Position numbers and translations under genes: made by a program. Source: a virus (taxonomy: Duplodnaviria > Heunggongvirae > Uroviricota > Caudoviricetes). From it: a stretch of DNA of 37,653 nt. Location of the stretch: the IMG/VR virus record IMGVR_UViG_2778261231_000003, one strand, 5' to 3'. Below, in pieces: positions 1 through 23,364 of this stretch. The notes under the pieces were generated by a model. It was given only the letters and a program-made list of their open reading frames with translations, did not search any database and was not told where the DNA came from. Every line of letters starts with the position of its first letter. Position 1 is the first letter of the stretch.

Positions 1-128
1 CCACCGGTGAACTCAGCCCCCACCATGCCCACTGCGTTACCCTGTACCACAACGATTTAACCTGCGAAGCCGACACCCTTGGCAGTTGCGGCTACGTATA
101 CATCGCCATTTACCCCACTCAGAGTTAA
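1..128 (+). CDS. CbeA/YeeU-family antitoxin, C-terminal fragment (5' end lies outside the window)
   Basis: Frame ending at TAA 126-128 reads ...[29 protein letters not shown], matching the conserved C-terminus of CbeA/YeeU/YafW antitoxins (recalled from memory). The toxin gene starts 20 nt downstream. Confidence 0.6.
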
Positions 129-148
129 TTACCTTCACGAGAGTAAAC

Positions 149-490
149 ATGAAAACTTTACCTGCAACAACTCAGCGGGCGGCGAAGCCCTGCCTAGCAC
201 CCGTGGCTGTCTGGCAAATGCTACTGACCCGCCTGCTGAAACAGCACTATGGTCTCACCCTCAACGACACACCGTTCAGTGAGGAACGTGTTATACAGGA
301 ACATATCGATGCCGGAATCACGCTGGCTGATGCCGTGAATTTTCTGGTGGAAAAATACGAACTGGTGCGTATCGACAGGAAGGGATTTAACTGGCAGAAA
401 CAATCCCCTTATCTCCGGGCTGTAGACATTCTGCGAGCACGGCAGGCAACTGGCTTGTTGCGGCAAAGCCGTAACAACGTAGTACGATGA
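149..490 (+). CDS. cbtA: CbtA/YeeV/YkfI-family toxin (type IV toxin-antitoxin toxin)
   Basis: ORF-track product from [14 protein letters not shown]... carries the family motifs [18 protein letters not shown] and IDILRAR. The ATG at 149 (not the in-frame upstream start at 86) is chosen because it follows the antitoxin stop. Confidence 0.8.
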
Positions 491-555
491 ACATTGCGTA
501 CAACCTTCCCGATTTACATTTCTGAACTTCCTCCCTTGTTTACCTATTGCGTAAT

Positions 556-591
556 GCGCCTGCTACTACCCGGCAGGCGCGTTATCTTTTT
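556..591 (+). terminator. Rho-independent terminator downstream of the toxin gene
   Basis: GCGCCTGC (556-563), 9-nt loop, GCAGGCGC (573-580), then GTTATCTTTTT. Confidence 0.5.
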
Positions 592-871
592 ACGGACAAA
601 CAATCATGCAACCAGAAGTTGAAGTATTAACCGATCATAATGAGCTAATTTGTTCGAGCTTTATTGAACACATTGCCAACACATTAAATTTAGGAGTAGT
701 GTACAACTAAACCTGCAGCCAAGGATGTATAGTGAGCGAAGCCCTATCAGGCCTTTTTGGTCAGTAGATAAGATTGATCTTCGTTGATAGAATTTACTTA
801 CACCAGCTGTTACATTAAGATAATTTTTTGGTGGGAGAATGATAAGATCTTACGTAACAATTTGATTTTAA

Positions 872-917
872 TGGTGCCGATAATAGGAGTCGAACCTACG
901 ACCTTCGCATTACGAAT
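872..917 (-). repeat. 46-nt 3' fragment of a tRNA-Thr(CGU) gene (anticodon loop to CCA end): attachment-site remnant, not a functional tRNA
   Basis: Reverse complement of 872-917 is ATTCGTAATGCGAAGGTCGTAGGTTCGACTCCTATTATCGGCACCA (anticodon loop with CGT, T-arm GGTTCGACTCC, acceptor 3' strand, CCA). Sequence 5' of it (918 onward) cannot supply the D-arm or the 5' acceptor strand. Identity to E. coli thrW is from memory. Confidence 0.7.
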
Positions 918-1222
918 TATAAGAATCCGCTTCTAATTCAAAGCATTACCCCATCAACACTGCGCTCACACGTCCCACCACATCAAAACATGTAAAGCCT
1001 TGCAAGCCATTGCGAGGCCTTATGTGTCTCAGTTTTGTCCCACCTTGTATTACGACTTACATAGCCAATGAAGATAAACGTGACGGCAAACGGCGCAGCA
1101 GTCTTCTTTTCCTTCATACTTTCCCCACCCAGCATGCATACCTTTATGCCATAACTGAAGTTTATGTCTGTTATGAGCGAAAAGCAGACATTACACTAAA
1201 TTATTTAGGTTTACTTTTATCA

Positions 1223-2101
1223 TTACATTTCTAATGCTTTTTCTCTGCTAATTGATCCTTCACCATTGCAGGTTCTGCAATCTAATTTTATATTCCTGCA
1301 GTCAGGACAAGTGAATTTTTCATAATTAGAAAGATTCACCTTTGCAGCAATATATCTTTTTACGGATCCCATTCCATTACAGATCGGACAATCTTCTCCC
1401 GCTAAACTGCCTTTTCCATTACATAAAGGGCAAGTTACAGTGGATATCACTTCATTTTCATTTTCATTTTCATAAATAAAATTGTTGAAATTTTGGGCGT
1501 TTATTGTGCTTAGTTGAACTTTTTCAATTTTTTTTATGTGATGTTCAAAATACTTTTTAATTGCCTTCTTAAGATCCTCTTTAGACGATTTCCATTGTTC
1601 TGGTGAGATCCTAATCGATTGAAATCCTTCGTTACTAGTTATTACTGCATCACGCTTGTAAGTAGACTTAATTTTACTTTCCACATAATGAGCTATGTGG
1701 CCATCATACTCGATGCCAATAGCAGCAATCTCAACCAAATCTTGACCAATCCATCTATTTAGTCTAAGGACAAGGTCTATTGCCCAAGGCTGGGCTTTTG
1801 GGTTTATATTGCCAACCTTATACTGAGGCTCGATATAAACAATATGTCCGTTTGGGAATTGACCTTTCAGAGTTATTCGTCGTGGTGAATTTTGAAAACT
1901 ATCGATTTCCAATGGACTAAACTGAGATATGAGGCCGGCAATTACCTCTATCTCAGCCTGAGATGTTTTTTCCACTCCTTGTAAACTAATAAGACCGATA
2001 GCTACTTGACGGTTAGTGGCTGGCTCAATCCTTTTAAATAGTTTCTTCTGATTATTACTAAAATTATTTTTGATAACTTCAAGTGTTTCATCTAGTTCCA
2101 T
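1223..2101 (-). CDS. Predicted endonuclease: Vsr/DUF559-like PD-(D/E)xK core fused to a C-terminal DnaJ-type zinc finger (four CxxCxGxG motifs)
   Basis: ORF-track protein 1223..2110. Core motifs AIDLVL, GIEYDGHIAHY, KRDAVITSNEGFQSIRI follow the D...E-x-DG-x-H...RD...G pattern of Vsr/DUF559 endonucleases. C-terminus has CPLCNGKGS, CPICNGMGS, CPDCRN, CRTCNGEGS. ATG at 2101 preferred over GTG at 2110 because of a GGGTGAG Shine-Dalgarno. AT-rich codon usage. Confidence 0.55.
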   Translation of the reverse strand: MELDETLEVIKNNFSNNQKKLFKRIEPATNRQVAIGLISLQGVEKTSQAEIEVIAGLISQFSPLEIDSFQNSPRRITLKGQFPNGHIVYIEPQYKVGNINPKAQPWAIDLVLRLNRWIGQDLVEIAAIGIEYDGHIAHYVESKIKSTYKRDAVITSNEGFQSIRISPEQWKSSKEDLKKAIKKYFEHHIKKIEKVQLSTINAQNFNNFIYENENENEVISTVTCPLCNGKGSLAGEDCPICNGMGSVKRYIAAKVNLSNYEKFTCPDCRNIKLDCRTCNGEGSISREKALEM

Positions 2102-2233
2102 CTCACCCACTCTATAAACTGATTATCCATATAAACTACATTATCATTTTTAACTGCTCAACATAGATTAACATAGCGCGATGCTAACAGTGTCAACTCC
2201 TGGCACAGGGCTGTTGTTGCAGCCCTGACAACC

Positions 2234-3042: not shown

Positions 3043-3954
3043 TTATATGTAATCAGGTAGTGAATTCAAAGCCATCACTCTTTCTCTTTCTTTTTCTGTC
3101 ATTTCTCTCATAACAATTTGAGATAGCGCTAATGTTATCTCCTTTGTTTTATTGAAGGCTTCTTTGGTATATGTTTTCCTTCCATACTCAAGTTCATTAA
3201 ATGTCCCCATAATCCATTTGAGATAGAATAATGGGATGGCTAGATCACTTATATCCTGCCATCTCGTAATCGCTTTATATTCATTCCAAAAATAATCCTC
3301 AAAATGCTTATCACAATCACCTTTACACGCATAATAAACCGCTATCACCTCATTTGGTTTGTCATCGTGTATGATCTCTGCATTGCACACAATGCCATCA
3401 TAATTTTCTTCATGATGGTTTTCTATTAAGTCCTTTCCACAACGATCACATTTTATAGGTAAGTACTTATCAAAAATCAAATGCTTGGGTTTTATTTTTT
3501 TATAGCTCTCAGGAAAGTATCTAAGGAGTAGTTTTGAGTAACCAATTCTGACTAAGTGATTTTCAATTAATTTACCATCAAAGAATCGAAAGTCCTTTAT
3601 TTTTCCATTCTCTTTTAATTGCGTCATTCTTGAATTTAAACCACTACTTGGCAGTGTTGAGTAAAATCCAATAAATCCGTCGGCATTGAATCCATCAATA
3701 CGTTCTTGTATATTAATCTCATCCTTTTCTGAAACTGATTTTTTACTTGTTGCATAATGTTTACAGCTAACAAGCCAACGAAATTTATATTTATTTAACT
3801 GACCTTGCAATTGCTCTGTGATTAAAAGATCTTTACCTCCATCTGCACCTCTATCTGGCGCGGATTCAATATAAAAGCCAAGTTCTTCAAGAAAATCACG
3901 GGCAAATGACTCCCAGGCTTCACCGTCACTATCAATTTCAGTAAAGTTAATCAT
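3043..3954 (-). CDS. Predicted Mrr-like (PD-(D/E)xK restriction-endonuclease fold) nuclease domain protein with Cys/His-rich C-terminal region
   Basis: N-terminus EAWESFARDFLEELGFYIESAPDRGADGGKDLLITEQ...FRWLVSCKHY fits the Mrr catalytic-domain pattern (acidic residue, D-x-G-x-D-L, Q/E-x-K). C-terminal part has CDRCGKDL...C...ACKGDCDKH. GGGAG Shine-Dalgarno 9 nt upstream of ATG 3954. Very AT-rich. Confidence 0.55.
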   Translation of the reverse strand: MINFTEIDSDGEAWESFARDFLEELGFYIESAPDRGADGGKDLLITEQLQGQLNKYKFRWLVSCKHYATSKKSVSEKDEINIQERIDGFNADGFIGFYSTLPSSGLNSRMTQLKENGKIKDFRFFDGKLIENHLVRIGYSKLLLRYFPESYKKIKPKHLIFDKYLPIKCDRCGKDLIENHHEENYDGIVCNAEIIHDDKPNEVIAVYYACKGDCDKHFEDYFWNEYKAITRWQDISDLAIPLFYLKWIMGTFNELEYGRKTYTKEAFNKTKEITLALSQIVMREMTEKERERVMALNSLPDYI

Positions 3955-4331: not shown

Positions 4332-5201
<870 letters not shown>

Positions 5202-5225: not shown

Positions 5226-5263
5226 GCAGCACGATCTTCTTGCATACGACGTGCTACGGTTTC
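5226..5263 (+). repeat. Direct repeat copy 2, between the GIY-YIG stop and the invertase stop
   Basis: GCAGCACGATCTTCTTGCATACGACGTGCTACGGTTTC; internal inverted repeat AGCACG...CGTGCT. Overlaps the invertase stop codon (5262-5264) by 2 nt. Confidence 0.6.
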
Positions 5264-5816
5264 ATTTATCTCCGACCGGAAACTTCTTATACAGTGTCGA
5301 TATACCAACATCATAGATGATCGCCACCTTCTGGCGAGGAACGCCTGATGCAATTAATCGCCCGGCCTGCGCCCATTGTTCTGGTGTAAGTTTGGGACGA
5401 CGTCCCCCAATTCGTCCCTGTGCGCGAGCAGCTTCCAGTCCAGCTTTTGTTCGTTCAACAATCAGTTCTCGTTCCATTTCAGCCAGGGCACCCATCACAT
5501 GAAAGAAAAAACGCCCCATCGGTGTGCTGGTATCAATAGCATCCGTCAGGCTGCGAAAATTAACGCCACGTTCGCGCAACTCCTCAACCAGAATGACCAG
5601 ATGCCGCATACTACGCCCCAGCCGATCCAGCTTCCAGACAACCAGAGTGTCACCTGCCGATAATGTCCTGAGCAGTTTTTTCAGTCCCGGCCTTTCGGAC
5701 TTTGTACCGCTTATCTTGTCTTCAAAAATCAGCTCGCATCCTGCACAGTTCAGCGCATTACGTTGTAGATCTGTGTTCTGGTCATTTGTTGACACACGTA
5801 CATAGCCAATAAGCAT
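5262..5816 (-). CDS. Serine recombinase, DNA invertase of the Pin/Gin/Hin/Cin family
   Basis: N-terminus MLIGYVRVSTNDQNTDLQRNAL matches Pin/Gin invertases (from memory) and includes the catalytic serine; C-terminal HTH GVPRQKVAIIYDVGISTLYKK. GGGAGA Shine-Dalgarno upstream. Confidence 0.85.
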   Translation of the reverse strand: MLIGYVRVSTNDQNTDLQRNALNCAGCELIFEDKISGTKSERPGLKKLLRTLSAGDTLVVWKLDRLGRSMRHLVILVEELRERGVNFRSLTDAIDTSTPMGRFFFHVMGALAEMERELIVERTKAGLEAARAQGRIGGRRPKLTPEQWAQAGRLIASGVPRQKVAIIYDVGISTLYKKFPVGDK

Positions 5817-5912
5817 GGTAGATCTCCCTGACTGATTAGACTTGAGATAAATGACAGGGGATAAGTGAGATAATTATGGGAAGTACTGGGTCAACATGGG
5901 AAGAGACTGGAT

Positions 5913-5945
<33 letters not shown>

Positions 5946-5993
5946 AAGACTGGCCCGAAAAAAACAGAACTCGCACCAGCCTGATTGCAGATA

Positions 5994-6383
5994 TTACTCC
6001 TTTTTCCCTGTATCGGCATCAGGTTCGCCATCAAACAGTTTGCCCTGCATCCGATCCAGTTCTTCTTTTCTGACCCGCTTCACCACGCTGTAAACCCACT
6101 GTAGTGAAACACCAAATTTGCGGGCCAGTTCGTGATGGTTGCGCCCGTCAAACTCCAGGAAAATTTCCCGGTCGCGCTGGCTGACCTTCCAGACCATGCC
6201 CATCGGAAAATAGACGTTTTGCCCACCCCAGACCTGCATCATGCGGTTCGCGACGGCCTGACCAATCTGGTCGGCAACTGCGGGTTCGATATCAATAATC
6301 TCGCGGACAGTCTCAGAGGTATGCTGTGCCAGTTCCACCAACAGTTCCGGCCCTTTACTACGAAACTGATTCAGGTCGCTCAT
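5994..6383 (-). CDS. Mor/C-family transcription activator
   Basis: GGQNVYFP and C-terminal HTH ELARKFGVSLQWVYSVVKRVR align with Mu Mor (from memory). ATG 6383 has a GGGAG Shine-Dalgarno and overlaps the GemA stop (ATGA); 129 aa. Confidence 0.8.
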   Translation of the reverse strand: MSDLNQFRSKGPELLVELAQHTSETVREIIDIEPAVADQIGQAVANRMMQVWGGQNVYFPMGMVWKVSQRDREIFLEFDGRNHHELARKFGVSLQWVYSVVKRVRKEELDRMQGKLFDGEPDADTGKKE

Positions 6384-6808
6384 TGCTTCACTCCCGCAGC
6401 TCTGCGCTGCCACTTCTTCAGTTTCTCAATCACGCTACTTGCCTGCTCATTGCTGAGCCAGCGTAACGCGCTGATGCCGGTTTCCCGTTTAACCCACAGC
6501 GCCAGCGCCTGCTCTGAACTGTCACGGACGATGCCTGCGGCAGCCATTTCAAGCCATAGCGCACGGATTTTCTTTGACTGCGGATGGCTGTCGAGCGGTA
6601 AGCCGGACTTGGCTTTCCCGGCAGGCTTAATGCGAAAGCCTTTCTTTTTCATTGATTCCAGCACGCGGTTTAGCTGTGGGGTATCCATCCCTTTGGTTGA
6701 GGCTTTGCCGGTCAGCCCCTGTAGCATCTGGCGGTAGGTGTCCTCATCCATCTGGAGGTCGCTGCGGGCAATATGAATGAGTTGAATAAGACGCTGCTTA
6801 GTCATCAT
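6380..6808 (-). CDS. GemA-like protein (Mu gp16 family, DUF1018)
   Basis: MMTKQRLIQLIHIARSDLQMDEDTYRQMLQGLTGKAS is the typical GemA N-terminus. Start at 6808 preceded by GGAG and overlapping the upstream stop; the ORF-track extension to 6997 lacks support. Confidence 0.7.
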   Translation of the reverse strand: MMTKQRLIQLIHIARSDLQMDEDTYRQMLQGLTGKASTKGMDTPQLNRVLESMKKKGFRIKPAGKAKSGLPLDSHPQSKKIRALWLEMAAAGIVRDSSEQALALWVKRETGISALRWLSNEQASSVIEKLKKWQRRAAGVKQ

Positions 6809-7013
6809 TGCCACTCCTTTTACCTGCGCCACCGATATAGTCGACATATAAAGGAAGCGCGACAGGCCAGCACAGGAACATAACGGCCCAACTGATCCAG
6901 TGTCCGGTACCGCTGTAACGTGAGTAAAACCCTGAACGGCGGTGCAGTTCAGCAGTACACCACCCCACGAGACCATACCAGAACAAGGCACATACAATTG
7001 ATTCAGCCATCAT
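6798..7013 (-). CDS. Small membrane protein (hypothetical, early operon)
   Basis: 71 aa with two hydrophobic segments; translationally coupled to neighbours. Confidence 0.5.
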   Translation of the reverse strand: MMAESIVCALFWYGLVGWCTAELHRRSGFYSRYSGTGHWISWAVMFLCWPVALPLYVDYIGGAGKRSGNDD

Positions 7014-7699
7014 AAGCCACTCCCCAGCTTCCGCTGTTCCTGCCCGCTGACAGGCTGATGTAGACGGACGTTTTCTCCCTCTCTGTAACCGATGTGGCGG
7101 GACATGTCCGCGTCACGGGATTTACCGGCTTTGCGGCCAGAGGTTGTTCCTGAATCAGGGTATTTTTGTTCAAGCCAGAGGTTTGCCAGCTCCCGTTCTT
7201 CGCGGGACATAGCAAATAAATGAACCTCACTACGCACGGCCAGAACCCATCCTTCGGCAAATTTGTCACCACGGCTGGTCTTGGTCGTGTTTTTGATTCT
7301 TTTATTCTGCTGTCGAATATAGTTTTTACGGGCCATGATTAACTGTCTGGCCAGTACCTCCCATGTATATGAGGCCAGTTCAACCCGGTCTTTATTACCG
7401 TAAAAGCCAACGCCGGGTTTAAAGCCGGAGTGAATAATAGACTTAACGCCAAATGCCACCTGGATAATATCCAGCAGACCCAGCATATAACGCGGCGGAT
7501 TAACGCTACCTGCAGCCCAGTAGTTACTGACGCTTTCATCAATATCACTGAGTGCGAGGTCAGCCTGGGTGATGTTATAGGCCTGCATCAGTTTCTGGGC
7601 GCGTTGCAGTGCCAGTGCCGCTTCATGGGGGTTATCGGATTTAGCCAGCGCAAGTAGCTTTTTTAACTTCTCCAGCAGCTTTTCATTATTCTGCGGCAT
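7010..7699 (-). CDS. DUF2786-like early protein
   Basis: N-terminus LLEKLKKLLALAKSDNPHEAALALQRAQKLMQAYNI is the DUF2786-type motif; GGGGGTG Shine-Dalgarno. Confidence 0.6.
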   Translation of the reverse strand: MPQNNEKLLEKLKKLLALAKSDNPHEAALALQRAQKLMQAYNITQADLALSDIDESVSNYWAAGSVNPPRYMLGLLDIIQVAFGVKSIIHSGFKPGVGFYGNKDRVELASYTWEVLARQLIMARKNYIRQQNKRIKNTTKTSRGDKFAEGWVLAVRSEVHLFAMSREERELANLWLEQKYPDSGTTSGRKAGKSRDADMSRHIGYREGENVRLHQPVSGQEQRKLGSGL

Positions 7700-7982
7700 A
7701 AGTCACCCCCAGGCGTTCGGCAAGGCGTTCCAGCTTTTTCTGCTTATGAAAATCAATCATCAGGCCCATCCCGTTTAGGCGGAACTGTTCAATCATGATT
7801 TCAACGTCAGCCAGTTCGCCTGCCAGATCAACTTCATTGCCCAGTCCGTTCATGTTGCGGGCAGCAGCAGCGGCCAGTTCGGCAGCTTCTTCCATCAGCT
7901 TCAGAGCCTGAGCTTCTGGGCCGAAGGTTTTGAGGGCCAGATTGTAGATCGTCGAACGGTTATATAATTTCATGCCTTTCAT
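7686..7982 (-). CDS. MazG-like nucleoside triphosphate pyrophosphohydrolase domain protein (small, all-alpha)
   Basis: KLMEEAAELAAAA ... LAGELADVEIMIEQF matches the EE-x-x-E / E-L-x-D paired acidic motifs of MazG-type NTP-PPases. 98 aa. Confidence 0.45.
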   Translation of the reverse strand: MKGMKLYNRSTIYNLALKTFGPEAQALKLMEEAAELAAAAARNMNGLGNEVDLAGELADVEIMIEQFRLNGMGLMIDFHKQKKLERLAERLGVTYAAE

Positions 7983-7997
7983 CTTATCTTCCCCAAA

Positions 7998-8270
7998 TCA
8001 ATGGCGTGATACGCTGATAACTTTCACGTGGCCGTCCTCAGTAATTTCCAGCTCGTACAGCGGCGGCATTTTTCTCAGGTGGTCACTGGTGGCGTGAAGA
8101 ACGTAAATGGCCTGATCTAGGCCATTTGTTGCTACGATGGCGTGTGAAGCCATGCTGATTAATTTGATTAATACCTGCCGGATATGGTTGGGATTTTCAC
8201 AACCACATTCACTGATATATTCCGCGACAATTTCACGGGTCCGTTTTTCGGCTTCTTTTGCAGTAATCAT
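7998..8270 (-). CDS. Hypothetical early protein
   Basis: 90-aa ORF with GAGG Shine-Dalgarno, coupled to upstream gene. Confidence 0.5.
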   Translation of the reverse strand: MITAKEAEKRTREIVAEYISECGCENPNHIRQVLIKLISMASHAIVATNGLDQAIYVLHATSDHLRKMPPLYELEITEDGHVKVISVSRH

Positions 8271-8455
8271 TTCTTTGCCTCACAAGGGATGAATTCCATG
8301 GCCGGGACTTCGGTGTAGTAATGCTGGCTACAGTGTGGGCATACCAGCGTGATGAGGACGGCTGGTACGCGGTACTTACCGGAGGAAATGACGCTGGCGT
8401 CGCTGAACTTCAGGGTGGTGATACCTTTCTGGCAGTTGATACATTTGATGGACAT
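8267..8455 (-). CDS. Small zinc-ribbon protein (two CxxC pairs)
   Basis: MSIKCINCQ ... VCPHCSQH; AAGGA Shine-Dalgarno. Confidence 0.5.
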   Translation of the reverse strand: MSIKCINCQKGITTLKFSDASVISSGKYRVPAVLITLVCPHCSQHYYTEVPAMEFIPCEAKK

Positions 8456-8533
8456 GATTTATTCCTTAATGCTGTTTTCGGCGTGTAGAAGCCCACGGCA
8501 CTGACGCCGAAATAAAAAGAAATTGAATTAAAA

Positions 8534-9145
8534 TTAAATGGCAGCGATATCTAACGGAATATTAATTAGCTTCCCGTGTTTATCTTTCTCCCGGAAATTA
8601 ATATAGGTTTTGGACATTGCCACCTGCAGTGATTCCGATATGGCCTCCATTGCCCGGTTCCAGCGCTCGTCCTGAATCTTGACGCGGCGCAGGGAAAGAA
8701 TACGTCCGGTATTAAGCTGGCCCTCTTTGTCCACCTGAAAAGCATCGCTGATGATGGCCCGCAGGTTGGCGTTCGCGCCTTCCGACCACTCGGTGACGCA
8801 CTCGTCTATCAGGTCTTTGGCAATCTGCAGCTCTGGCCCGAAGGTCAGGGTTTCCTGCACGCGGATGGTGATCTGCTGAGCACCGTCGAAGCTGCTGAAG
8901 GTCACGTTGCCTTTGGCACCGCCACGCGTTCTGCCGTACTTCTCGGCCACAAGGTCAAGCCAGGCATAGCACTCGTCAAAGGCACGACGCTTGAAGTCAC
9001 TGAGTTCATCGCGTTTAACCTTCGCGGCGACAACCTGTTCTTTAACGAAAGAGTCCATCGCAAGGTCATAGTCAGACACCTGGTCAACCGGCACCAGACG
9101 CCCCTTGCGGTCTTTCATGTAGTTTTCTTTATTTACTTCGCTCAT
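8534..9145 (-). CDS. DUF3164-like early protein
   Basis: 203 aa, AAGGTGA Shine-Dalgarno; position and composition as in Mu-like early regions. Family call from memory. Confidence 0.55.
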   Translation of the reverse strand: MSEVNKENYMKDRKGRLVPVDQVSDYDLAMDSFVKEQVVAAKVKRDELSDFKRRAFDECYAWLDLVAEKYGRTRGGAKGNVTFSSFDGAQQITIRVQETLTFGPELQIAKDLIDECVTEWSEGANANLRAIISDAFQVDKEGQLNTGRILSLRRVKIQDERWNRAMEAISESLQVAMSKTYINFREKDKHGKLINIPLDIAAI

Positions 9146-9162
9146 CTCTGTTCACCTTATGG

Positions 9163-9432
9163 TTAATGTAACGACTCTGACCAGGTAATACGGCAGCCAT
9201 GCAACTCAAAGACACCCTGACGGAAGCGCCCTGAGCCGTCATGGCCAACATGGGTATAACTCGCTTTGCCCTGCTCCAGCAGGCGGGCACAGTGCCCGTT
9301 GCGGGCGATACGGATAACCGGCTTACTGCCAGCAATCATGACGCTCTGCACGGTAGTGTTCATGGCGTTGAGCGCCATAATGGCGGACTGCACCTTGTTC
9401 ATCTGCTGGTTGATATCGGCGATGGATTTCAT
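9163..9432 (-). CDS. Hypothetical early protein
   Basis: 89 aa, AAGGAG Shine-Dalgarno, immediately downstream of the B-like gene. Confidence 0.5.
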   Translation of the reverse strand: MKSIADINQQMNKVQSAIMALNAMNTTVQSVMIAGSKPVIRIARNGHCARLLEQGKASYTHVGHDGSGRFRQGVFELHGCRITWSESLH

Positions 9433-9434
9433 GC

Positions 9435-10601
9435 TTAAACTCCTTTGACGACGTCGGCGTTGACCTGCGGGACCCCGATTTCAGCAGCCAGATTCATGGC
9501 GGCTATCACCAGGTTACTGACGGCCAGCGGATACAGCAGGCTGACCATGCTTTTACGGCTACTACCCAGATTGCTCAGACGGGCGCGGATGGCTTCCACT
9601 GCGCTGGCGTCCATGATGTCGGCCAGCTGCTTACCGGCACGTTGCAGTTTGAACGTCAGAAACTCTTCGAGGCTGTTGTCCAGCGGCAGCAATTCAACCA
9701 ACTCGCAGCGCTGGACGACCTCACGGACTTCCATGTTGCGTTCGGACAGTTTGTCCGCCAGTTCAGGCTGGCCAATCAGCACGATGGACAGCAGTTTTTT
9801 GAAGCCGGACTCCAGTTCGAAGAAGCGTTTAAGGTGCTTCAGCGTCGGAATGGGAAGGCTGTGGGCCTCCTCAATCACCAGAACGTGGCTGAAACCCGCC
9901 TGACTGCTGTCCTTCAGGACTCGGTGCAACTGGCGGAAGCGGGCGTCCTGGCTGCGTTTGATACTCTCCAGCGGCGCGATGGTGCTGATGATGGCCTCGG
10001 CGATAGCTGCCGCCTTCAGGGTTTTGCCCTTCACGTCGTTGTCTTCCATGGCGATGATGTATGGCTCGATTACAATCACCGGCGCGTTCTCGCGGTTGAC
10101 GCGTTCAATCAGGTCGCGGCGCAGCGTGGATTTACCCGCACCGGACTCGCCGATAACCGCCAGAAAGCCACCATGGCGGGCGGTCTGGAACAGCGCCTCA
10201 CGCACGTAGCGGATATCCGGCGTGGTGAACACATCGTCCGCGCCCTGCATGGCTTCATCGGCGAACGGATCACGGAAAAGGCCAAACGCTTTTTTGGTTG
10301 CTGGAAATAACACCTGCTTTTTGAGTAACATGTTCTCTTCCTCACTGAGGTTGGTTTTATCGGTAGTACCCGCTGTACGGGGCGTGACAGCGCCCTGTGC
10401 AGCATCAAAACTTTTCACTGTATCAATCCCCTTACTTTCCAGATACAACGCCAGACGCTGGCGTACCTCTTCGGGGCTGGTGCGTGGCCACTCGTTATGG
10501 TTCACAATCTGGGCCAGCGTGGCCTCGGAAACGGCGACGGCTCTTGCCACCACCGCCTGCGGGATGCGGGCCTCTTTCAGTTGTTGCTTCAGTACCAGCA
10601 T
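9435..10601 (-). CDS. Transposition ATPase / target-DNA activator (Mu B-like AAA+ protein)
   Basis: N-terminal HTH region, Walker A GESGAGKST, downstream acidic Walker B-like stretch; sits directly after the transposase gene; GAGGAGG Shine-Dalgarno. Confidence 0.8.
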   Translation of the reverse strand: MLVLKQQLKEARIPQAVVARAVAVSEATLAQIVNHNEWPRTSPEEVRQRLALYLESKGIDTVKSFDAAQGAVTPRTAGTTDKTNLSEEENMLLKKQVLFPATKKAFGLFRDPFADEAMQGADDVFTTPDIRYVREALFQTARHGGFLAVIGESGAGKSTLRRDLIERVNRENAPVIVIEPYIIAMEDNDVKGKTLKAAAIAEAIISTIAPLESIKRSQDARFRQLHRVLKDSSQAGFSHVLVIEEAHSLPIPTLKHLKRFFELESGFKKLLSIVLIGQPELADKLSERNMEVREVVQRCELVELLPLDNSLEEFLTFKLQRAGKQLADIMDASAVEAIRARLSNLGSSRKSMVSLLYPLAVSNLVIAAMNLAAEIGVPQVNADVVKGV

Positions 10602-10611
10602 GCCTTCCTCC

Positions 10612-12381
10612 TCAGTTACCGTTAACGATGCTGATAACGCTGTTGCGGGCCGGAGTGGTCAGGGTAACCATCACCTCATCCAGCGCGGCTTCAGGTACGC
10701 CATCCGGGTACTGCGCCGTTAACTGGCGGTAATGTTCCGGCGTCCAGATATGGCCGTTAGCGCCAAACTTCTCGCGCAGGGCTTTCGCCGCCTCCACATG
10801 GGTCAGCGGACGCTGCTCAATACGCGGCCCGCGCACGTCTGAAGCCTGACCGCGCTTCGGCATATAGGCCGGAAGCGTGGTGTCGTCGATATGTTTGTAC
10901 GGGTCAAGTCGCCCGCCGAACGGCAGCGCCTTCGCCTTGCGTGCAGCAGCTGCATCGGTGGCGTTATCGGTGCCCGTAACCAGCTCTTCGATTTCTTTTG
11001 CCGCCGTCTGCGCCGGGGTCTCCGGCAGGGCTTTGTAGTTTTCGCCAAATACCGCCGCGTTTTCGGCAAAGCCGAACTCGTTCTTTCTGACCTCCTCGAC
11101 CAGGAAGAACGTCTCGTGACCGTCCTCACCGGTCAGCACCACCTGCGCCACATCGCTGCGCCACGGGTTACGGGTAATCATCAGTTTTTCGCCGACCAGT
11201 ACGCCCGGTACCGTCGAAACGTCAAACTCATTGCCCCGGAACGAGACGCGCAGTTTTGGTGTGACCTTACGGAGTTCCGGTGCGGCCACCGCCAGTTCGC
11301 GGCAAACCTCAACGGATGGCGCTTTTTTCAGCTGGTCAGCAGTAATCTTCAGCCAGATATCCGTGCGGGTTTTACCGTGGCGGCTGTGGACCGCCGTGGC
11401 GTTAAAGTGGCTGCGCCATTTCACCGCCAGTGCGTTCAGTTCGTCCAGGCTATGAACCGGCTGGAATTTGAGACCCGGCTCCAGTTTACGTTCGATAATG
11501 TCACGGGCCTTTTCCACCTGCCCGGTGGCGCGGGCGTTATGCGGCTTGTGCGCTATCAGATTGATGCCCAGCGAGCGGCACATGTTTTTCGTCATGCCAG
11601 CGGTGTTCGCCGAACCGGGATCAAGGTAGAGTATTTTCGGCACGCCGTGCAGCACGTCCGCGCCGCCGCGCTCCTGCATGGCGTTGATAAGCACAGAACA
11701 GAGGTTCTCACCAGATTCCGCACCCATCACGTACTCAACGTAAATCCAGCCGCTGGTATGGTCGGTAATCTCGTAACTCCACACGCGGTCACTGGCGATG
11801 CGGGCGATGTTGGCAGGCTTGTTCTTGTAGAACTTCGAGCTGTCCATCACCTGCAACCCTTTATGGCCGTTGCTCAGGTAGTAAAGCGTACAAAGTGAGG
11901 CATCAATCTCCCAGACGTGATTGGGATGCAGGCTGGCCATCTCGGACGACGGGGCCGGTGCGTCAAGCTGTTCCGGGTGCAGACCATAGTTCCGCAGGGC
12001 GCGGCTGATGGTGTCCTCGGACAGCGGGAAAAACTCGCCTGTGGCCTCGTCCGTTCTGCCAGCAGTGATAAAGCCGTTTGACCGCAGGGTCTCCACCGCA
12101 TCCGCGATGGAATACAGGCGCTTACCGTTCTTACGGGTGGCCTCGCGCAGCGTGGCAGATATCAGCGCGGCTTCGTCGCGGCTCAGGGCACTGCGCCCGG
12201 CATCGGCGCGTTTTTTACGTTTGTCAGTCACTGATACCTCCTTCAGCTTGCGCAGCAGGGTGGCGCGGGAAATGCCCAGTTCGGCGCAGGCGGCATCATA
12301 TATCGCACCACGCTTACCATGCCCCGCGTCACGTGCCGCGCGGGCAACATAAACCAGTCGTTCAGTCAGGGCGGCACTCAT
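10612..12381 (-). CDS. DDE transposase (phage transposase A; rve/integrase-core type)
   Basis: 589 aa, N-terminal HTH, central integrase-core-like region (HPNHVWEIDAS...); AGGAGG Shine-Dalgarno; upstream of the B-like ATPase as in transposable phages. Confidence 0.8.
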   Translation of the reverse strand: MSAALTERLVYVARAARDAGHGKRGAIYDAACAELGISRATLLRKLKEVSVTDKRKKRADAGRSALSRDEAALISATLREATRKNGKRLYSIADAVETLRSNGFITAGRTDEATGEFFPLSEDTISRALRNYGLHPEQLDAPAPSSEMASLHPNHVWEIDASLCTLYYLSNGHKGLQVMDSSKFYKNKPANIARIASDRVWSYEITDHTSGWIYVEYVMGAESGENLCSVLINAMQERGGADVLHGVPKILYLDPGSANTAGMTKNMCRSLGINLIAHKPHNARATGQVEKARDIIERKLEPGLKFQPVHSLDELNALAVKWRSHFNATAVHSRHGKTRTDIWLKITADQLKKAPSVEVCRELAVAAPELRKVTPKLRVSFRGNEFDVSTVPGVLVGEKLMITRNPWRSDVAQVVLTGEDGHETFFLVEEVRKNEFGFAENAAVFGENYKALPETPAQTAAKEIEELVTGTDNATDAAAARKAKALPFGGRLDPYKHIDDTTLPAYMPKRGQASDVRGPRIEQRPLTHVEAAKALREKFGANGHIWTPEHYRQLTAQYPDGVPEAALDEVMVTLTTPARNSVISIVNGN

Positions 12382-12384
12382 GGG

Positions 12385-13293
12385 TTATGCCTCCTGCCCG
12401 TTAATCTCTGGCGTCGGGTCAGTCAGCCATGAAGGGGCGGCGTTGCCTGTCGGCTCGTCCGGCAGGTCAAATGTGGAGCGTAGGCTACGCGCGGTGCTTT
12501 CCAACTGGCAGACCAGACCGGCCATAAAGTCTCTGGGGGTATCAATCATATTTTCAGCACAGTATGCGCACAGGGTCTCAAAGGCGCTGGACAGTCGAAC
12601 GGCGATGGCAGATTCCGCCTCAACCGCTAACGCTGTAACTTCCGCACGCAGCTTCTTCACCTCTTCGTCAGGCTTGGGCGGCTGGATACGGGATTTCTTC
12701 TCCAGTTTTGTGGAGAGCGAGTCGATTTTTTCGTTTTTGTCGGCAAGCACGCGCTGTTGTGCTGCGTTGGTTTCGCGGGCTTCACGTAGGGCTTGACGCA
12801 ATTCTCTACAGCTCATGCGGTCGACATCATCTAGTTTCAGACCCGCTACAGTGCCACCATCAGCCAGTTCAGCGAGAGATTCATCATCTTCAGTCATCAA
12901 TTCAAAAAGTTTGGATTTACCCAAATGTGCCAACGTTGGCACATTTGATTTCAGTGCGGGGGATAAGTATTTAGTCGATGCTTGCATCATCCGCACAGAA
13001 GTTCGGTATGGTAAGCCCAACTCATTTTCAAGAATGTTAATAAATTCCCCGTGCGGCTCATTTTCTTTAAGAATTACAAGGCGCTTACCTGCTTCCAGCA
13101 TCGCCTCAGCACTCTGTGCCATATAAAACCGTGTTTCGTGAACAATACGATCACGTTCATACGGCAGACCATCACCGAACTGCTGCATGATTTCGAGGCG
13201 ATGTTCGGTCATGGCATTAAGACTAACGTTGAGGCCATCACTCAGCGGAGCATCTTCCATTAGTTCAACTGGTTGTGATTTTGTGCGTCCCAT
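12385..13293 (-). CDS. DUF3102-like early protein
   Basis: 302 aa with central coiled-coil; AAGGAG Shine-Dalgarno. Family call from memory. Confidence 0.55.
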   Translation of the reverse strand: MGRTKSQPVELMEDAPLSDGLNVSLNAMTEHRLEIMQQFGDGLPYERDRIVHETRFYMAQSAEAMLEAGKRLVILKENEPHGEFINILENELGLPYRTSVRMMQASTKYLSPALKSNVPTLAHLGKSKLFELMTEDDESLAELADGGTVAGLKLDDVDRMSCRELRQALREARETNAAQQRVLADKNEKIDSLSTKLEKKSRIQPPKPDEEVKKLRAEVTALAVEAESAIAVRLSSAFETLCAYCAENMIDTPRDFMAGLVCQLESTARSLRSTFDLPDEPTGNAAPSWLTDPTPEINGQEA

Positions 13294-13302
13294 TTCAACT
13301 CC

Positions 13303-13608
13303 TTAGCGACTACCAGCCATAACACGCTGGTTGATTTCATTAATACGATCCTGCGCCCGCGCCATTTCGGTACTGTGCGCCATGGCGATTTGTAAGAGCT
13401 GGACTCCAGGGGCAAAACGCCCGTTATCCAGTTTCAGGGCCAGTCCTTCTTCGATAAGGGTATTGAGCGCCCGATTGATATTCGCCGGGGACTCGCCCAG
13501 AGCTGACGCCAGCTCGCCGTTAGAAACACCGTTCAGAGCGTGACCGCGTAAAGCCTTAAGGACACGCAAAATACGGGTACCTGAGCTTGATGTATTTGGT
13601 TTACTCAT
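13303..13608 (-). CDS. Small winged-helix DNA-binding protein (IclR-type N-terminal HTH)
   Basis: TRILRVLKAL...GVSNGELASALGESPANINRALNTLIEEGL; AAGGAGG Shine-Dalgarno; start overlaps the Ner-like stop (ATGA). Confidence 0.55.
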   Translation of the reverse strand: MSKPNTSSSGTRILRVLKALRGHALNGVSNGELASALGESPANINRALNTLIEEGLALKLDNGRFAPGVQLLQIAMAHSTEMARAQDRINEINQRVMAGSR

Positions 13609-13835
13609 GACGCCTCCTTGAGGATGCCGGGGGTAACTTCTTTGCCTATTGCGACCGAAAGGTCTCGCAAAATCCGATAAGTCAAACGACCGCGTGGAAG
13701 TTCGCTTTTGCCTGCCCAGCGGCTGACAGCCTGGGTGACTGTTCGTGGCTCATAGCCCGCGTTAAGCGCGAACTGGCGCAAGCTACTGCCTCTTTCAACC
13801 AGCCGTGCCCGAACTTGTTGTTTGTTCATATGCAC
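13605..13835 (-). CDS. Ner-like DNA-binding protein
   Basis: ~75-aa protein with SLRQFALNAGYEPRTVTQAVSR HTH, divergent from the repressor. True start may be ATG 13829 rather than GTG 13835. Confidence 0.7.
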   Translation of the reverse strand: MHMNKQQVRARLVERGSSLRQFALNAGYEPRTVTQAVSRWAGKSELPRGRLTYRILRDLSVAIGKEVTPGILKEAS

Positions 13836-13917
13836 CGTGTTCCTGTTGGGTTATGATGTACTCTATTGGGTCTATTGTACGCACCCGAACGGGTATGTCA
13901 AATTGAGATATGTTCAA

Positions 13918-14328
13918 ATGAGTATAAAAGAGAGATTGCGCGAAGCGATGGATGCTAAGAGTCTGACAATTAAGGCATTGTCAGACTTGTCAAAAATTCC
14001 ATATCGCTCACTTCAAAACTATCTGCGTGGAGAGAGAGAACCTAATGCAGAGGCTCTTGTTGCGCTAAGCACCCATTTGAACATATCAATAGATTGGCTA
14101 CTTACTGGTAAAGGGGAAGCTGTTGGGGTAGAGAAAGCACAGCCAGCTAATCAGGAGCAGCATTTCAACCAGTCTGATCTGAAGTTATTGGAGCTGCTCA
14201 ACCAACTGGAGCCAGAGGTGCGAAAAGAGTTGCTGCGAGGCGCTGAGGAAAAACAGCGAATGATTGATATGGAAAAACAGCTTAAGGAGCTGTCCGCAGC
14301 GTTCGAAAGATTAAAAAATACGGGTTAA
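13918..14328 (+). CDS. XRE-family HTH repressor (phage c-type repressor candidate)
   Basis: LTIKALSDLSKIPYRSLQNYLRGEREPNAEALVALSTHLNISIDWLLTG is a Cro/cI-type HTH. No S24 peptidase domain. The 5' part of ORF-track 13822 lies in the operator region, so ATG 13918 is used. Confidence 0.7.
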   Translation: MSIKERLREAMDAKSLTIKALSDLSKIPYRSLQNYLRGEREPNAEALVALSTHLNISIDWLLTGKGEAVGVEKAQPANQEQHFNQSDLKLLELLNQLEPEVRKELLRGAEEKQRMIDMEKQLKELSAAFERLKNTG

Positions 14329-14363
14329 TCTGTTCCTATTAAGAACATTAGAGGTATAAGGAC

Positions 14364-14897
14364 ATGACTATGCGCAAATTATTTTTACCGTTGATATTTG
14401 TTTTATCTGGGTGTGGAGATAATACCGATCCTGCTGATACGTCCACCACAGCTAAGGAGCACGCGGTTTTTAGCGTTGAAACAGATAATCCGGTTGTAAA
14501 TCGCGAATTACCGTTTATTCGCCAACAACTCCCCGGCCTGGATAAGTACGCGGACAGTTTTGAAAAAGTCGAAGTATCCGAGGATAGCGAACGTCCGGTG
14601 ACAACGGTGCAGTTTCATATTAAAGACGAAAATAATATTCCAAGTGACTACATAGCCTCTGGTCATAATTGTTATTTGTTCATATCAAATAATGCCCACG
14701 AAGTGAAAATATCTAAATCAGCATGTCAGGCTGTTTTTTTCGATAAAACGGATGTTCCTGGTGGAGACCTGACCGTGAAACTTGATAAGGAAAAAGTTCC
14801 TATGACAGATGATGGTAAGACCCCGCGAGCAGGTTGTTTGAAAGCTTATTCACCAGAGCCAGATAATGATTATTGGACTTGTCCAAGGCAGGATTAA
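14364..14897 (+). CDS. Lipoprotein (possible moron / superinfection-exclusion candidate)
   Basis: Signal peptide with lipobox LSGC (MTMRKLFLPLIFVLSGCG); AAGGA Shine-Dalgarno; lower GC than surrounding phage genes (by eye). Confidence 0.65.
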   Translation: MTMRKLFLPLIFVLSGCGDNTDPADTSTTAKEHAVFSVETDNPVVNRELPFIRQQLPGLDKYADSFEKVEVSEDSERPVTTVQFHIKDENNIPSDYIASGHNCYLFISNNAHEVKISKSACQAVFFDKTDVPGGDLTVKLDKEKVPMTDDGKTPRAGCLKAYSPEPDNDYWTCPRQD

Positions 14898-14944
14898 ATG
14901 TTTAGGTGGTGCTGCAGATGCACCACCACCTTTAACTACCTCTT

Positions 14945-15715
14945 TCAAAAATTACAAATTACCAGCTCTTTCTTCGGGCTGGGTTTGCCTGTTACCTTAA
15001 GGTTGTAGCTGATATCAACCGACTGCATGTTCAGACCGTTGAATACCTGCCGCATTTCCGGGATATCGTTCACTGATATAATCATCTTCCCTTTGATCCT
15101 TCGCGCTAAATCTGCCATGTGATCATAGTTTTCCAGCCCGAACTCCACACCATAGCCTTCCGTTCCCCAGTACGGTGGGTCACAGTAGAACAGCGTATGC
15201 GGGCGATCATATCGCTCTATGCACTGGTGCCAGTCCAGATGCTCTATCAGCGTTCTCGACAGGCGCAGGTGTGCCATCGACAGTTCTTCCTCAATACGCA
15301 GCAAATTGAAGCGCGGCGCACTGGTTGTAGAGGTACCGAATGTGTGATCGGCGACCTTGCCGCCAAATGCCTGTTTCTGCAGGTAGTAGAACCGGGCCGC
15401 CCGCTGAATGTCGGTGAGCGTTTCTTCCGGCGTATCCTGCAACCATTTGTAAATCTGACGGCTGACCAGCGCCCATTTGAACTGGCGAATAAATTCTTCC
15501 AGATGATGCTTGACCACCCGATAGAGGTTCACCAGTTCCCCGTTGATATCGTTAATGACTTCGGTCTTGCTGGGAGTCTTTAGGAAATAGAGCGCAGCTG
15601 CCCCGCAGAACGGCTCCACATAGCAGGTATGGGCCGGAAACAATGGTAAAATATGCTTCGCCAGACGACGTTTACCGCCAATCCATGGGACGATGGGTAA
15701 AGATTGTTCTTTCAT
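14945..15715 (-). CDS. Dam-like N6-adenine DNA methyltransferase (D12 class)
   Basis: EPFCGAAALYF (AdoMet motif) and FYCDPPY catalytic motif. ATG 15715 preferred over TTG 15739. Confidence 0.8.
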   Translation of the reverse strand: MKEQSLPIVPWIGGKRRLAKHILPLFPAHTCYVEPFCGAAALYFLKTPSKTEVINDINGELVNLYRVVKHHLEEFIRQFKWALVSRQIYKWLQDTPEETLTDIQRAARFYYLQKQAFGGKVADHTFGTSTTSAPRFNLLRIEEELSMAHLRLSRTLIEHLDWHQCIERYDRPHTLFYCDPPYWGTEGYGVEFGLENYDHMADLARRIKGKMIISVNDIPEMRQVFNGLNMQSVDISYNLKVTGKPSPKKELVICNF

Positions 15716-15762
15716 TATCCGTAAGCCTTTTGCAATCAATGAAAATATGGCAGGCTAGTCTG

Positions 15763-15774
15763 GTCTCGCGAGAC
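15763..15774. promoter_or_regulatory. 12-bp perfect palindrome in the divergent methyltransferase-holin intergenic region
   Basis: GTCTCGCGAGAC, ~190 bp upstream of the holin start. Confidence 0.3.
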
Positions 15775-15962
15775 TGACTGAACCCTGGTCGGCTCACAGT
15801 GCATACCTGTGGGTTGATGACCAGCCTGGTGTTACCGCACCGGGCTGGTCGTTCTTTCAAAGCCATCATGCGGTTCACGTCTGCATCCTCACTATTAACG
15901 CTGTTTAAAATCCCTTTCCCCGACCATTTGTGATGCTGTCTCCACTACACAAGGAGACGCTC

Positions 15963-16313
15963 ATGAAAAACCTGAAAAAATTCATTCCCCCTGTTAAAAA
16001 GCCACGTCTCAGCGGCTGGCTGCTGACCGCTGTGCTGCTGCTCGGCACCATCGGTCTGGTATCGCCCCAGCAGCTGCCGGTGGTTGTCTACAAGCTATCA
16101 CTCATCACGCTGGCGGCAGTATTGGGCTACTGGCTTGACCGTTCGCTTTTCCCCAAAGCCCGTCCCGGTCAGTACCTGAAGCATGATGACAGGCTGATGG
16201 CTGATGGTCGCTTCCCTGTCCAGACTGGCCTTCACCTGGTCTTTTCTGCTGCGCTAATCCGCCGTGCGCTGATTGTTGCTGCAGTCTGTCTGGCCGTAGC
16301 GATGGGGCTTTAA
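15963..16313 (+). CDS. Holin-like membrane protein
   Basis: AAGGAG Shine-Dalgarno before ATG 15963; hydrophobic TM segments; stop overlaps the endolysin start (TAATG). Confidence 0.6.
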   Translation: MKNLKKFIPPVKKPRLSGWLLTAVLLLGTIGLVSPQQLPVVVYKLSLITLAAVLGYWLDRSLFPKARPGQYLKHDDRLMADGRFPVQTGLHLVFSAALIRRALIVAAVCLAVAMGL

Positions 16314-17050
16314 TGATGACCCTCTATATGTACTGGCCTCAGGTTGTCTGGGCCGTGCTGGTACTGCTGGGGCTGGGCATCGAACTGGCCCGCTACGGGC
16401 AGGCCCGAACGGGTAAGCACAGTTTCTGGTGGCAGCTCTTTGGTTCAGTAACGGTAGCCTGGCTGCTCTGGTGTGGCGGCTTCTTCAGTCAGGCCCGCGC
16501 TGCCCAGCCACCGCAGACCGCGCTGCAGTATCGCGACGATGTGATCCGTAATGCCCGGCTTGAATGGGGAATGTCTGCGCCGGTGGCCGACTTCGCCGCG
16601 CAGCTGCATCAGGAAAGCGGCTGGCGACCTGATGCGGTCTCGCCGGTTGGCGCTCAGGGACTGGCGCAGTTTATGCCCACCACCGCTGACTGGATAAGTC
16701 AGCTGATGCCGGGGCTTAACAGCCGTGAACCGTTTAATCCGTCTTGGGCCATCCGGGCGCTGGTCAGCTATGACCGCTGGCTGTGGCAACGCGTCAGCGC
16801 CGTCAATGACTGCGAGCGTATGGCCATGACGCTGTCAGGCTATAACGGTGGTCTGGGCTGGGTACAGCGGGACAAACGGCTGGCCTCGCAGCAGGGGCTG
16901 GACAGCACCCGCTGGTTTGGTCATGTCGCCACGGTGAATGCCGGACGCAGCACTGCCAACTGGCGGGAGAACCGTCATTATCCGCAGCGCATCCTGCACG
17001 AACTGGCCCCGCGTTATCTCACCTGGGGAGGCGGCAGCTGTGTGGACTAA
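16313..17050 (+). CDS. Endolysin: SLT-domain lytic transglycosylase with N-terminal hydrophobic anchor
   Basis: ESGWRPDAVSPVGAQGLAQFMP matches the SLT catalytic motif; N-terminal hydrophobic stretch WAVLVLLGLGI. Confidence 0.8.
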   Translation: MMTLYMYWPQVVWAVLVLLGLGIELARYGQARTGKHSFWWQLFGSVTVAWLLWCGGFFSQARAAQPPQTALQYRDDVIRNARLEWGMSAPVADFAAQLHQESGWRPDAVSPVGAQGLAQFMPTTADWISQLMPGLNSREPFNPSWAIRALVSYDRWLWQRVSAVNDCERMAMTLSGYNGGLGWVQRDKRLASQQGLDSTRWFGHVATVNAGRSTANWRENRHYPQRILHELAPRYLTWGGGSCVD

Positions 17051-17693
17051 CCTGCTAAAAAATCTGCCGTGGCGCAGTCTGCTGCTGGCGGTGGTCATAA
17101 ATGCTTTTCTGATTGGGCTTTATTACCTGGGCTACAAAAGCGGGCATGAAAACGCCACGCGCGACGGCGATAAGGCGGTCAGTGAGTTGCAGTCAGCATT
17201 CGACACGTACAAAACGGAGCAGGCAACGCTTGAGAACGCTGCGTTGCGGGCTTGGGCGAAACGGTATCAGGAACAGGTAGCCGCCGGGCAGCAGGCTGAA
17301 GCCAGTTACCTTGAGCAGATTGCTCAACTGGAGAGCCAGAACAAACAACTACAGGGGCAAATTAACGATGTCACACAGCGCTGGATTGATGAAAAAGGTA
17401 AGAGCCATCCCATTGAGTGCGTGTTTACTCGCGGTTTCGTGCGCCAGTACAACGCCGCGCTCGGATATGACAACGCATCCGTCGACACCGGTCATTCAGA
17501 CGCAACTGCCGCCGCTGGCACCGGCACTGGCGCAGCGTCCGGGCAACCTGAAGCCGCTGACGCCTGGCTACGCAACTCAGGCGTCTCCCAGCGTGATGTC
17601 CTCGCCAACATCATCGACAACGCGAAGCAGTGCCGCATCTGGCGCAGCCAGATAAACGGGATGCTGGACGAACGGGAAGGATTACAGAAATGA
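17040..17693 (+). CDS. Rz-like i-spanin
   Basis: GTG 17040 after GGGGAGG; N-terminal TM LLLAVVINAFLIGLYYLGY then coiled-coil periplasmic domain; Rz1-like ORF embedded in the +1 frame. Confidence 0.65.
   Translation: MWTNLLKNLPWRSLLLAVVINAFLIGLYYLGYKSGHENATRDGDKAVSELQSAFDTYKTEQATLENAALRAWAKRYQEQVAAGQQAEASYLEQIAQLESQNKQLQGQINDVTQRWIDEKGKSHPIECVFTRGFVRQYNAALGYDNASVDTGHSDATAAAGTGTGAASGQPEAADAWLRNSGVSQRDVLANIIDNAKQCRIWRSQINGMLDEREGLQK
17389..17655 (+). CDS. Rz1-like o-spanin lipoprotein, embedded in the Rz gene
   Basis: MKKVRAIPLSACLLAVSCAS (lipobox candidates LSAC / AVSC) followed by a proline-rich mature region, wholly inside 17040-17693 in another frame. Confidence 0.5.
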   Translation: MKKVRAIPLSACLLAVSCASTTPRSDMTTHPSTPVIQTQLPPLAPALAQRPGNLKPLTPGYATQASPSVMSSPTSSTTRSSAASGAAR

Positions 17694-18022
17694 CGTTGCA
17701 GGTTGAATTCTGGACGGTGGTGGGCTTTCTCATCACCTTCATGAGCTTTGTCGGCGGTATGGCCAAGTGGCTGTTCAGTAAAGCGGAGGAGCGTCAGGCG
17801 GCGCGGTTCGCCTCTCTTGAGCAGTCGCTGCAACAGTCCGCTTCCAACTGGGGCGAGCTGGAAAAAGAATTTATGCGGTTTAAGGCGGATTTACCGCTGA
17901 ACTACGTCCGCCGCGAGGATTACATCCGTGGGCAGACGGTCATCGAGGCCAAGCTGGACGCACTCTACAACAAACTGGAAGTGGTACAGCAGTATCGTCA
18001 TACAGGAGGTCACCATGGTTGA
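17690..18022 (+). CDS. Small membrane / coiled-coil protein (hypothetical)
   Basis: ATG 17690 overlaps the Rz stop (ATGA); one TM WTVVGFLITFMSFVGGMAKWLF. Confidence 0.55.
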   Translation: MTLQVEFWTVVGFLITFMSFVGGMAKWLFSKAEERQAARFASLEQSLQQSASNWGELEKEFMRFKADLPLNYVRREDYIRGQTVIEAKLDALYNKLEVVQQYRHTGGHHG

Positions 18023-18326
18023 TATCGCCCGCGTGCGCCGGGAATCCCTGCGCTGGAGTCTGCTGGTTGCTCTGAACAAAACCCGCCCGTACACCGCCAG
18101 CGAGACGCTGCTGCTGGACGTGTCCCGCGCCATCTACCCGGACACCACTCCGCTGGAGCTGCGCCGTGAGCTGGATTATCTGTCCGACCGCAAGATGGTT
18201 GATCTGGAGAAAAAACCCTCCGGCGACTGGTTTGCCGACCTGACCCGCCTCGGCGTTGACCTGGTGGAATATACCGTGGAATGCGGCCCCGGTATCGCCC
18301 GCCCGGAAAAGTACTGGAGTGAATGA
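18015..18326 (+). CDS. Hypothetical protein
   Basis: AGGAGG Shine-Dalgarno 6 nt before ATG 18015; 103 aa. Confidence 0.55.
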   Translation: MVDIARVRRESLRWSLLVALNKTRPYTASETLLLDVSRAIYPDTTPLELRRELDYLSDRKMVDLEKKPSGDWFADLTRLGVDLVEYTVECGPGIARPEKYWSE

Positions 18327-22689: not shown

Positions 22690-22691
22690 CG

Positions 22692-23150: not shown

Positions 23151-23194
23151 GTTTTGTCTCTGCAGGCGGGTGATTTATCATTGCCAGCCGCTGA

Positions 23195-23230: not shown

Positions 23231-23364
23231 CGCTTTGCACCACTATTCGCCCGCAGCGTGACATTCCCCGTACTGATACCCCCGATTTTTTCTAAAGCAG
23301 ATTAAAAGCGCTGCTGACGCTTTTTCCACAGACTGTCCCCGACAACGTAACGCGGGACAGCAAA

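Follow-up and report, generated by a model that had tools for sequence, protein, structure and literature searches.

The tRNA-Thr gene thrW is the integration site of the Shigella phages SfI, SfII, SfIV, SfV and SfX and of Salmonella phage P22. The 46-bp sequence ATTCGTAATGCGAAGGTCGTAGGTTCGACTCCTATTATCGGCACCA is the core of attP, attL and attR in SfI and is common to SfII, SfV, SfX and P22 (PMC3636060). Experiments with S. flexneri lysogens have established that SfI and SfX can occupy thrW in tandem (PMC3306764). The serotype-converting phages of Shigella and E. coli have a common layout, in which the core is followed by an attachment arm, a moron slot and a tail-fibre/invertase end, and in which int lies at the opposite end beside intact thrW and proA. 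E. coli K-12 carries the cryptic island CP4-6 at this locus, and its thrW-proximal end reads thrW, ykfN, ykfI, yafW. Lastly, the BcepMu-like phages Phi06_2974 B, PhiKM and KP12 carry Mu-type genes and are found at many insertion sites.

We find that parts of all these systems meet in a single stretch of DNA of 37,653 nucleotides (the window), the features of which are collected in Table 1. We propose, with a probability of roughly 0.88, that an SfV/e14-like prophage integrated in thrW upstream of CP4-6 and that positions 872-917 are the core of its attR. The junction is real and is an ordinary island boundary of a type that has already been described. The 46-bp core, the mechanism of integration and the tandem occupancy of thrW are all published, and CP4-6 with YafW/YkfI and a Mu-like phage at an arbitrary position are likewise described biology.

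Table 1. Features of the window, with positions, strand and the match or remark that goes with each.
Feature	Position	Strand	Match or remark
3' end of yafW, type IV antitoxin of CP4-6 (CbeA family)	1..128	+	cut by window edge
ykfI-type toxin gene, CbtA family, complete, 113 aa	149..490	+	
CP4-6 spacer, directly downstream of thrW in K-12	491..871	.	K-12 match
Terminator-like hairpin	551-585		14-bp stem, 7 G-C pairs, then CTTTTT
46-nt 3' remnant of thrW, tRNA-Thr(CGU)	872..917	-	probable attR core of SfV/P22-type prophage
Phage-side attachment arm, conserved end of SfV/e14-like prophage	918..1180	.	
Cargo ORF, 295 aa, DnaJ-type CXXCXGXG zinc finger and weak REase_MTES_1575 match	1223..2110	-	Pfam
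Cargo ORF, short tyrosine recombinase, catalytic domain only, ~200-218 aa	2234..2890	-	Pfam Phage_integrase, E=1.4e-14
Cargo ORF, 303 aa, Mrr_cat restriction-endonuclease-like domain	3043..3954	-	Pfam Mrr_cat, E=2.3e-5
LEM-3-like GIY-YIG nuclease gene, PD-T4-3 PADLOC match	4377..5201	+	E=2.4e-140; Pfam LEM-3_GIY-YIG
pinE-type serine DNA invertase	5262..5816	-	Pfam Resolvase and HTH_7; labelled pinE in matching genomes
BcepMu-like transposable prophage inside SfV-like prophage	5833..37653	+	left end TGATTAGACTTGAG... at 5833

Read on the minus strand, 872-917 reproduces the 3' 46 nt of thrW with no mismatch, and it is letter-for-letter identical to the published core. It occurs once in the window, where shuffled sequence would be expected to hold no copy, and a search that allowed up to 3 mismatches found no second copy anywhere in the window. 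Identity to thrW ends precisely at 917/918, and the 5' half of the tRNA has no alignment. The DNA on that side is moderately AT-rich, with a GC content of 41.6% for 918-1222 and 37.7% for 1223-3954. The preliminary description had claimed exactly this, a tRNA fragment of only the 3' 46 nt with unrelated AT-rich DNA 5' of it; the detail to be corrected is the strand, which is minus. A complete tRNA gene at 872-960 can be rejected: ARAGORN predicted no tRNA gene in the whole window, and the Rfam tRNA model scored the remnant at 14.2 bits (E=8), below its gathering score of 29.

Left of the core the window holds the thrW-proximal end of CP4-6. Positions 3-125 in frame 3 (stop codon at 126-128) encode the C-terminal part (41 aa) of a CbeA-family antitoxin (PF06154 CbeA_antitoxin, E=9e-20, 71.5 bits against a cut-off of 27), and the neighbouring gene encodes a CbtA-family toxin (PF06755 CbtA_toxin, E=6e-66, 219.9 bits against a cut-off of 25), the antitoxin coming first. 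The pair had been described as a CbeA/CbtA module, which holds for the family but not for the pair proper, as the closest K-12 proteins are YafW and YkfI. Amino acid identity of the antitoxin is 100% to YafW (40/40 aligned aa), 85% to YfjZ and 67% to CbeA, and that of the toxin is 89% to YkfI, 82% to YpjF and 59% to CbtA. Based on these identities across the three K-12 paralogue pairs and on the synteny common with K-12, we assign the genes, as a predicted pair, to the YafW/YkfI subgroup of the CbtA/CbeA type IV toxin-antitoxin family. The toxin gene is labelled ykfI in matching RefSeq genomes, and an NCBIfam search for the toxin and antitoxin names gave no match. At the nucleotide level the ykfI allele is 89% identical to that of K-12, amid flanks (the yafW end and the spacer) that are 98-99.7% identical; this low identity suggests a mosaic toxin gene that was exchanged between paralogues or alleles.

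The spacer between toxin gene and core is nearly indistinguishable from the K-12 thrW-ykfI spacer (380/381 positions identical, 99.7%), and nucleotide identity to the K-12 CP4-6 end over all 917 nt is 95.5%, with the same gene order. These alignments bear out the likeness to the tRNA-proximal end of CP4-6 that had been noted earlier, and the terminator reported beside the toxin-antitoxin pair is present as a hairpin followed by a T run. The tRNA beside ykfI is complete in K-12, whereas in the window only its last 46 nt are left, because another element parts CP4-6 from the intact gene.

That element begins to the right of the core. Positions 872-1042, which comprise the core and a further 125 bp, are 98.2% identical to the attP region of phage SfIV, next to int, and 872-1188 are 89.7% identical to Escherichia phage phi458 (both by blastn). 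Megablast of 860-5832 against the phage collection gave no listed record that spanned the attachment arm. Of 5426 complete E. coli genomes, 1014 have core and arm together (872-1190) at a coverage of at least 80%. Collinearity with the window that begins at yafW, takes in the core and reaches ~1180 is seen in 41 complete E. coli genomes. In the orientation of the window, the order in SfIV is xis, int, core, arm, gtrA, gtrB, gtrIV. This order is kept in the window from the core rightward, but left of the core the CP4-6 end replaces int. We read 872-917 as attR because it joins the chromosomal downstream flank to the int-distal arm of a phage. The earlier proposals that a second element had integrated at the same tRNA core and that the fragment marks an island boundary are both upheld, the first by a published att core with an SfIV-homologous arm and the second by the position of the core between the CP4-6 end and the arm of the SfV-like prophage.

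The locus differs from the described systems in its neighbors. The 46-bp core is the same as in SfI, SfII, SfV, SfX and P22, but the downstream neighbor is CP4-6 where the Shigella serotype-converting phages have yaiC, and the prophage carries a nested Mu-like phage, unlike the attR systems of those phages. As in the tandem of SfI and SfX, successive elements use the same 46-bp core and a bare copy lies between them; unlike in that tandem, the inner element is the old cryptic island CP4-6 and not a second active phage. Other E. coli carry P22-like, P4-like or other prophages in the same slot by the CP4-6 end. The exact toxin protein is present in 137 blocks of the assembly collection, and public assemblies with this toxin allele differ in what lies to the right of the CP4-6 end: in some cases proA follows directly, in others there is a P22-like phage or an SfV-like prophage, another myovirus, or a P4-like satellite that carries a reverse transcriptase. 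On the other side, several genomes, CX21 included, carry heat-resistance genes a few kb left of the CP4-6-like end (among them trx-GI, kefB-GI, psiE-GI, HtpX-like and DegP-like; positions 1-4400 of one extract and 1-2230 of four others). The window begins to the right of where such genes would show.

Comparison with complete genomes indicates what the SfV-like prophage looks like beyond the part visible here. Window positions 900-5832 are 99% identical to a prophage end in several complete E. coli genomes. In 21EVA, this prophage continues past pinE with an invertible tail-fibre segment and Mu-type baseplate and tail genes and, further on, with an HK97-type head and a P27-type terminase. By sequence, the prophage to which 918-5832 belongs is classed as an SfV/e14-like lambdoid myovirus. 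The far end can be seen in CX21, which has the same left junction and is collinear with window positions 1-1180. There, a prophage of ~38.5 kb ends in excisionase-region genes, a tyrosine integrase and an intact tRNA-Thr, with proA, proB and phoE beyond it. ARAGORN calls this tRNA Thr(cgt), and its sequence is that of K-12 thrW. The arrangement is the one anticipated in the preliminary description, in which an integrase and the intact tRNA should lie further right. The window itself contains neither the integrase nor a second copy of the core; an intact thrW and an integrase beyond its right end are a prediction that these comparators support well. Because the large prophage that fills most of the window is not a tRNA-integrating element (see below), the intact thrW would lie beyond the rest of both prophages; the estimate is ~3 kb for what is left of the Mu-like phage and up to ~33 kb more for the SfV-like prophage.

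A different possibility is that 872-917 is indeed attR but the SfV-like prophage is a decayed remnant, in which case the integrase or even thrW may be missing further right. The element could be such a remnant, since degraded versions are known: one example carries an IS1 (extract L020), another has lost its tail genes (extract L042), and in the window the Mu-like insertion already disrupts the pin/tail-fibre region. Both decayed examples, however, keep the integrase next to proA, and 900-5832 are 99% identical to intact prophages, which points to a recent origin. We consider decay to this extent unlikely, while giving it real weight.

We also considered whether site-specific recombination is needed at all. 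The 46-nt piece might be a tRNA pseudogene that arose when an unrelated deletion or insertion truncated thrW, and in favor of this a single junction is visible in the window. But the break matches the published 46-bp att core to the base, the adjoining DNA is homologous to the SfIV attP arm beside int, and the same junction recurs in 1014 genomes, all of which makes a pseudogene highly improbable.

Another explanation would place the fragment at the far end of CP4-6, as the island's own distal att repeat. K-12 does have a second copy of the core at the intF end of CP4-6 (extract L008, 7210-7255). That repeat, however, is 60 nt long (3 + 46 + 11) and lies beside intF and yagP, whereas thrW identity in the window stops at 46 nt and the fragment sits at the ykfI end, joined to the thrW-proximal spacer (99.7% identical). 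Neither an intF-type integrase nor yagP/pao genes are present next to 872-917. We reject this candidate on repeat length, position and flanks and regard it as scarcely credible. The K-12 repeat, in which the 46-nt core has 3 nt before it and 11 nt downstream of it, is at 297206-297265 (L008, 7207-7266) and pairs with L002, 2899-2958. In K-12, intF lies beside the distal fragment copy and not beside the intact thrW, which is the opposite of the layout in CX21, where int is next to the tRNA.

The large prophage that dominates the window is a passenger that stands outside the tRNA-site mechanism. Resemblance to SfV-like prophages can be followed as far as 5832, 16 nt upstream of the pinE ATG, and Mu-like sequence runs from 5833, so that the insertion falls between the invertase gene and the invertible tail-fibre segment of the host prophage. 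The inserted phage has a GC content of 56% and a Mu-type set of Pfam domains (Mor, GemA, DUF3164, rve transposase, AAA_22 (MuB-like) ATPase, DUF3102, HTH repressor and Portal_Mu), after which come P2-like tail genes. Nucleotide identity is 98.3% to Escherichia phage Phi06_2974 B and 96.5% to Klebsiella phage KP12, within the 96-98% that relates it to these phages and PhiKM; BcepMu itself is distant.

In more than 12 genomes the left end of this phage begins at an identical base although the flanking genes (narU, gadC, rumB and an aldolase gene among them) are unrelated, and further copies lie inside other prophages. In E. coli AW1.7, adiA is interrupted by a copy with 100% identity in the regions compared, 5833-6300 and 30000-37591. 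Judged from AW1.7 and PhiKM (~34.3-34.7 kb), the right end is expected ~2.5-3 kb past the window. The junction of pinE with the Mu-like phage occurs in none of the 5426 complete E. coli genomes, and searches of the genome, viral and metagenome contig collections for the exact 39-nt junction pattern found no match. Exact matches to the toxin, pinE, the last complete tail gene and the Mrr-like protein were found in many contexts, none of which has the window's combination.

The preliminary description had implicitly treated this large prophage as the tRNA-integrating element, a point on which it does not stand. Though the window has no other near-complete prophage and this one is on the side of the fragment where the element was expected, integration of the large prophage itself into thrW is about as implausible as any reading we weighed and is rejected, because it starts at 5833, 4.9 kb from the core, has Mu-type genes (rve transposase, MuB-like ATPase, Mor, GemA) and no integrase gene in its visible part, has near-identical copies in adiA, narU, gadC, rumB and other prophages, and is separated from the core by 918-5832, which belong to the different, SfV-like prophage.

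Within the Mu-like phage, an early transposase operon runs leftward and a late operon rightward from ~13.6-13.9 kb. A D12-class N6-adenine DNA methyltransferase gene (14945-15739, minus strand; PADLOC MTase_II, E=9e-114) sits between the repressor region and the late genes, with no nuclease noted beside it.

The exact match of the core, the homology of the arm, the synteny with CP4-6 and a Mu-like end that recurs at many unrelated sites are direct observations, and from them we infer the following order of events. The ancestral locus would have been K-12-like, with proA, thrW and then CP4-6, its ykfI/yafW end adjoining the tRNA. A lambdoid myovirus of the SfV/SfIV/e14 type, whose attP would hold a copy of the 46-bp thrW 3' end next to the tyrosine integrase gene, would then have entered, its integrase recombining attP with thrW. 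Integration of this kind would rebuild a complete tRNA at the integrase-proximal junction (attL) and leave a bare 46-nt core at the distal attR, still joined to the former downstream DNA of thrW (window positions 1-871). To the right of this core would follow the attP arm (918-~1180), the moron slot with its nuclease- and defence-like cargo, and the pin invertase. A BcepMu-like phage would have inserted later, at 5833, with 16 nt between it and the start codon of pinE, on the upstream side.

Fixing the boundary allows the genes of the window to be assigned to CP4-6, to the SfV-like prophage or to the nested Mu-like phage, and it adds to the known cases of thrW as an integration hotspot with more than one occupant. 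The value is practical only and has no bearing on any open question.

The sole part of the window with some unexplored content is the cargo of the moron slot, which is outside the boundary finding itself. Where the Shigella phages carry gtrA, gtrB and a type-specific gtr gene, the window has nuclease-like genes, a short recombinase and a gene of the type of PD-T4-3, which is known for anti-phage defence. The 295-aa ORF has a partial match to the PADLOC candidate PDC-M01B (E=5e-15), and the short recombinase is labelled a 200-aa tyrosine-type recombinase in 21EVA. The Mrr_cat gene is 91% identical at the nucleotide level to ORF1 of the P2-EC67 Z-region (AJ512685). Many E. coli genomes have the cargo of 1223-3954 in the same slot, and the nuclease gene of this cargo is also found in the P2 Z-region hotspot. 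It is possible, though we would put it forward tentatively and more doubt it than not, that these genes form an uncharacterised mobile anti-phage cassette.

Some minor observations concern the same genes. The exact 303-aa protein is present in 782 blocks of the assembly collection. Among the 10 places listed, a zinc-finger protein of 290-292 aa adjoins it in 10/10, and the recombinase is called in 6/10. In P2-EC67, ORF1 is flanked by inverted repeats. The start codon of the PD-T4-3-type gene is probably the ATG at 4425. This gene has on either side an exact 17-nt direct repeat, TTCTTGCATACGACGTG, at 4212-4228 and 5237-5253, which may be a cassette boundary.
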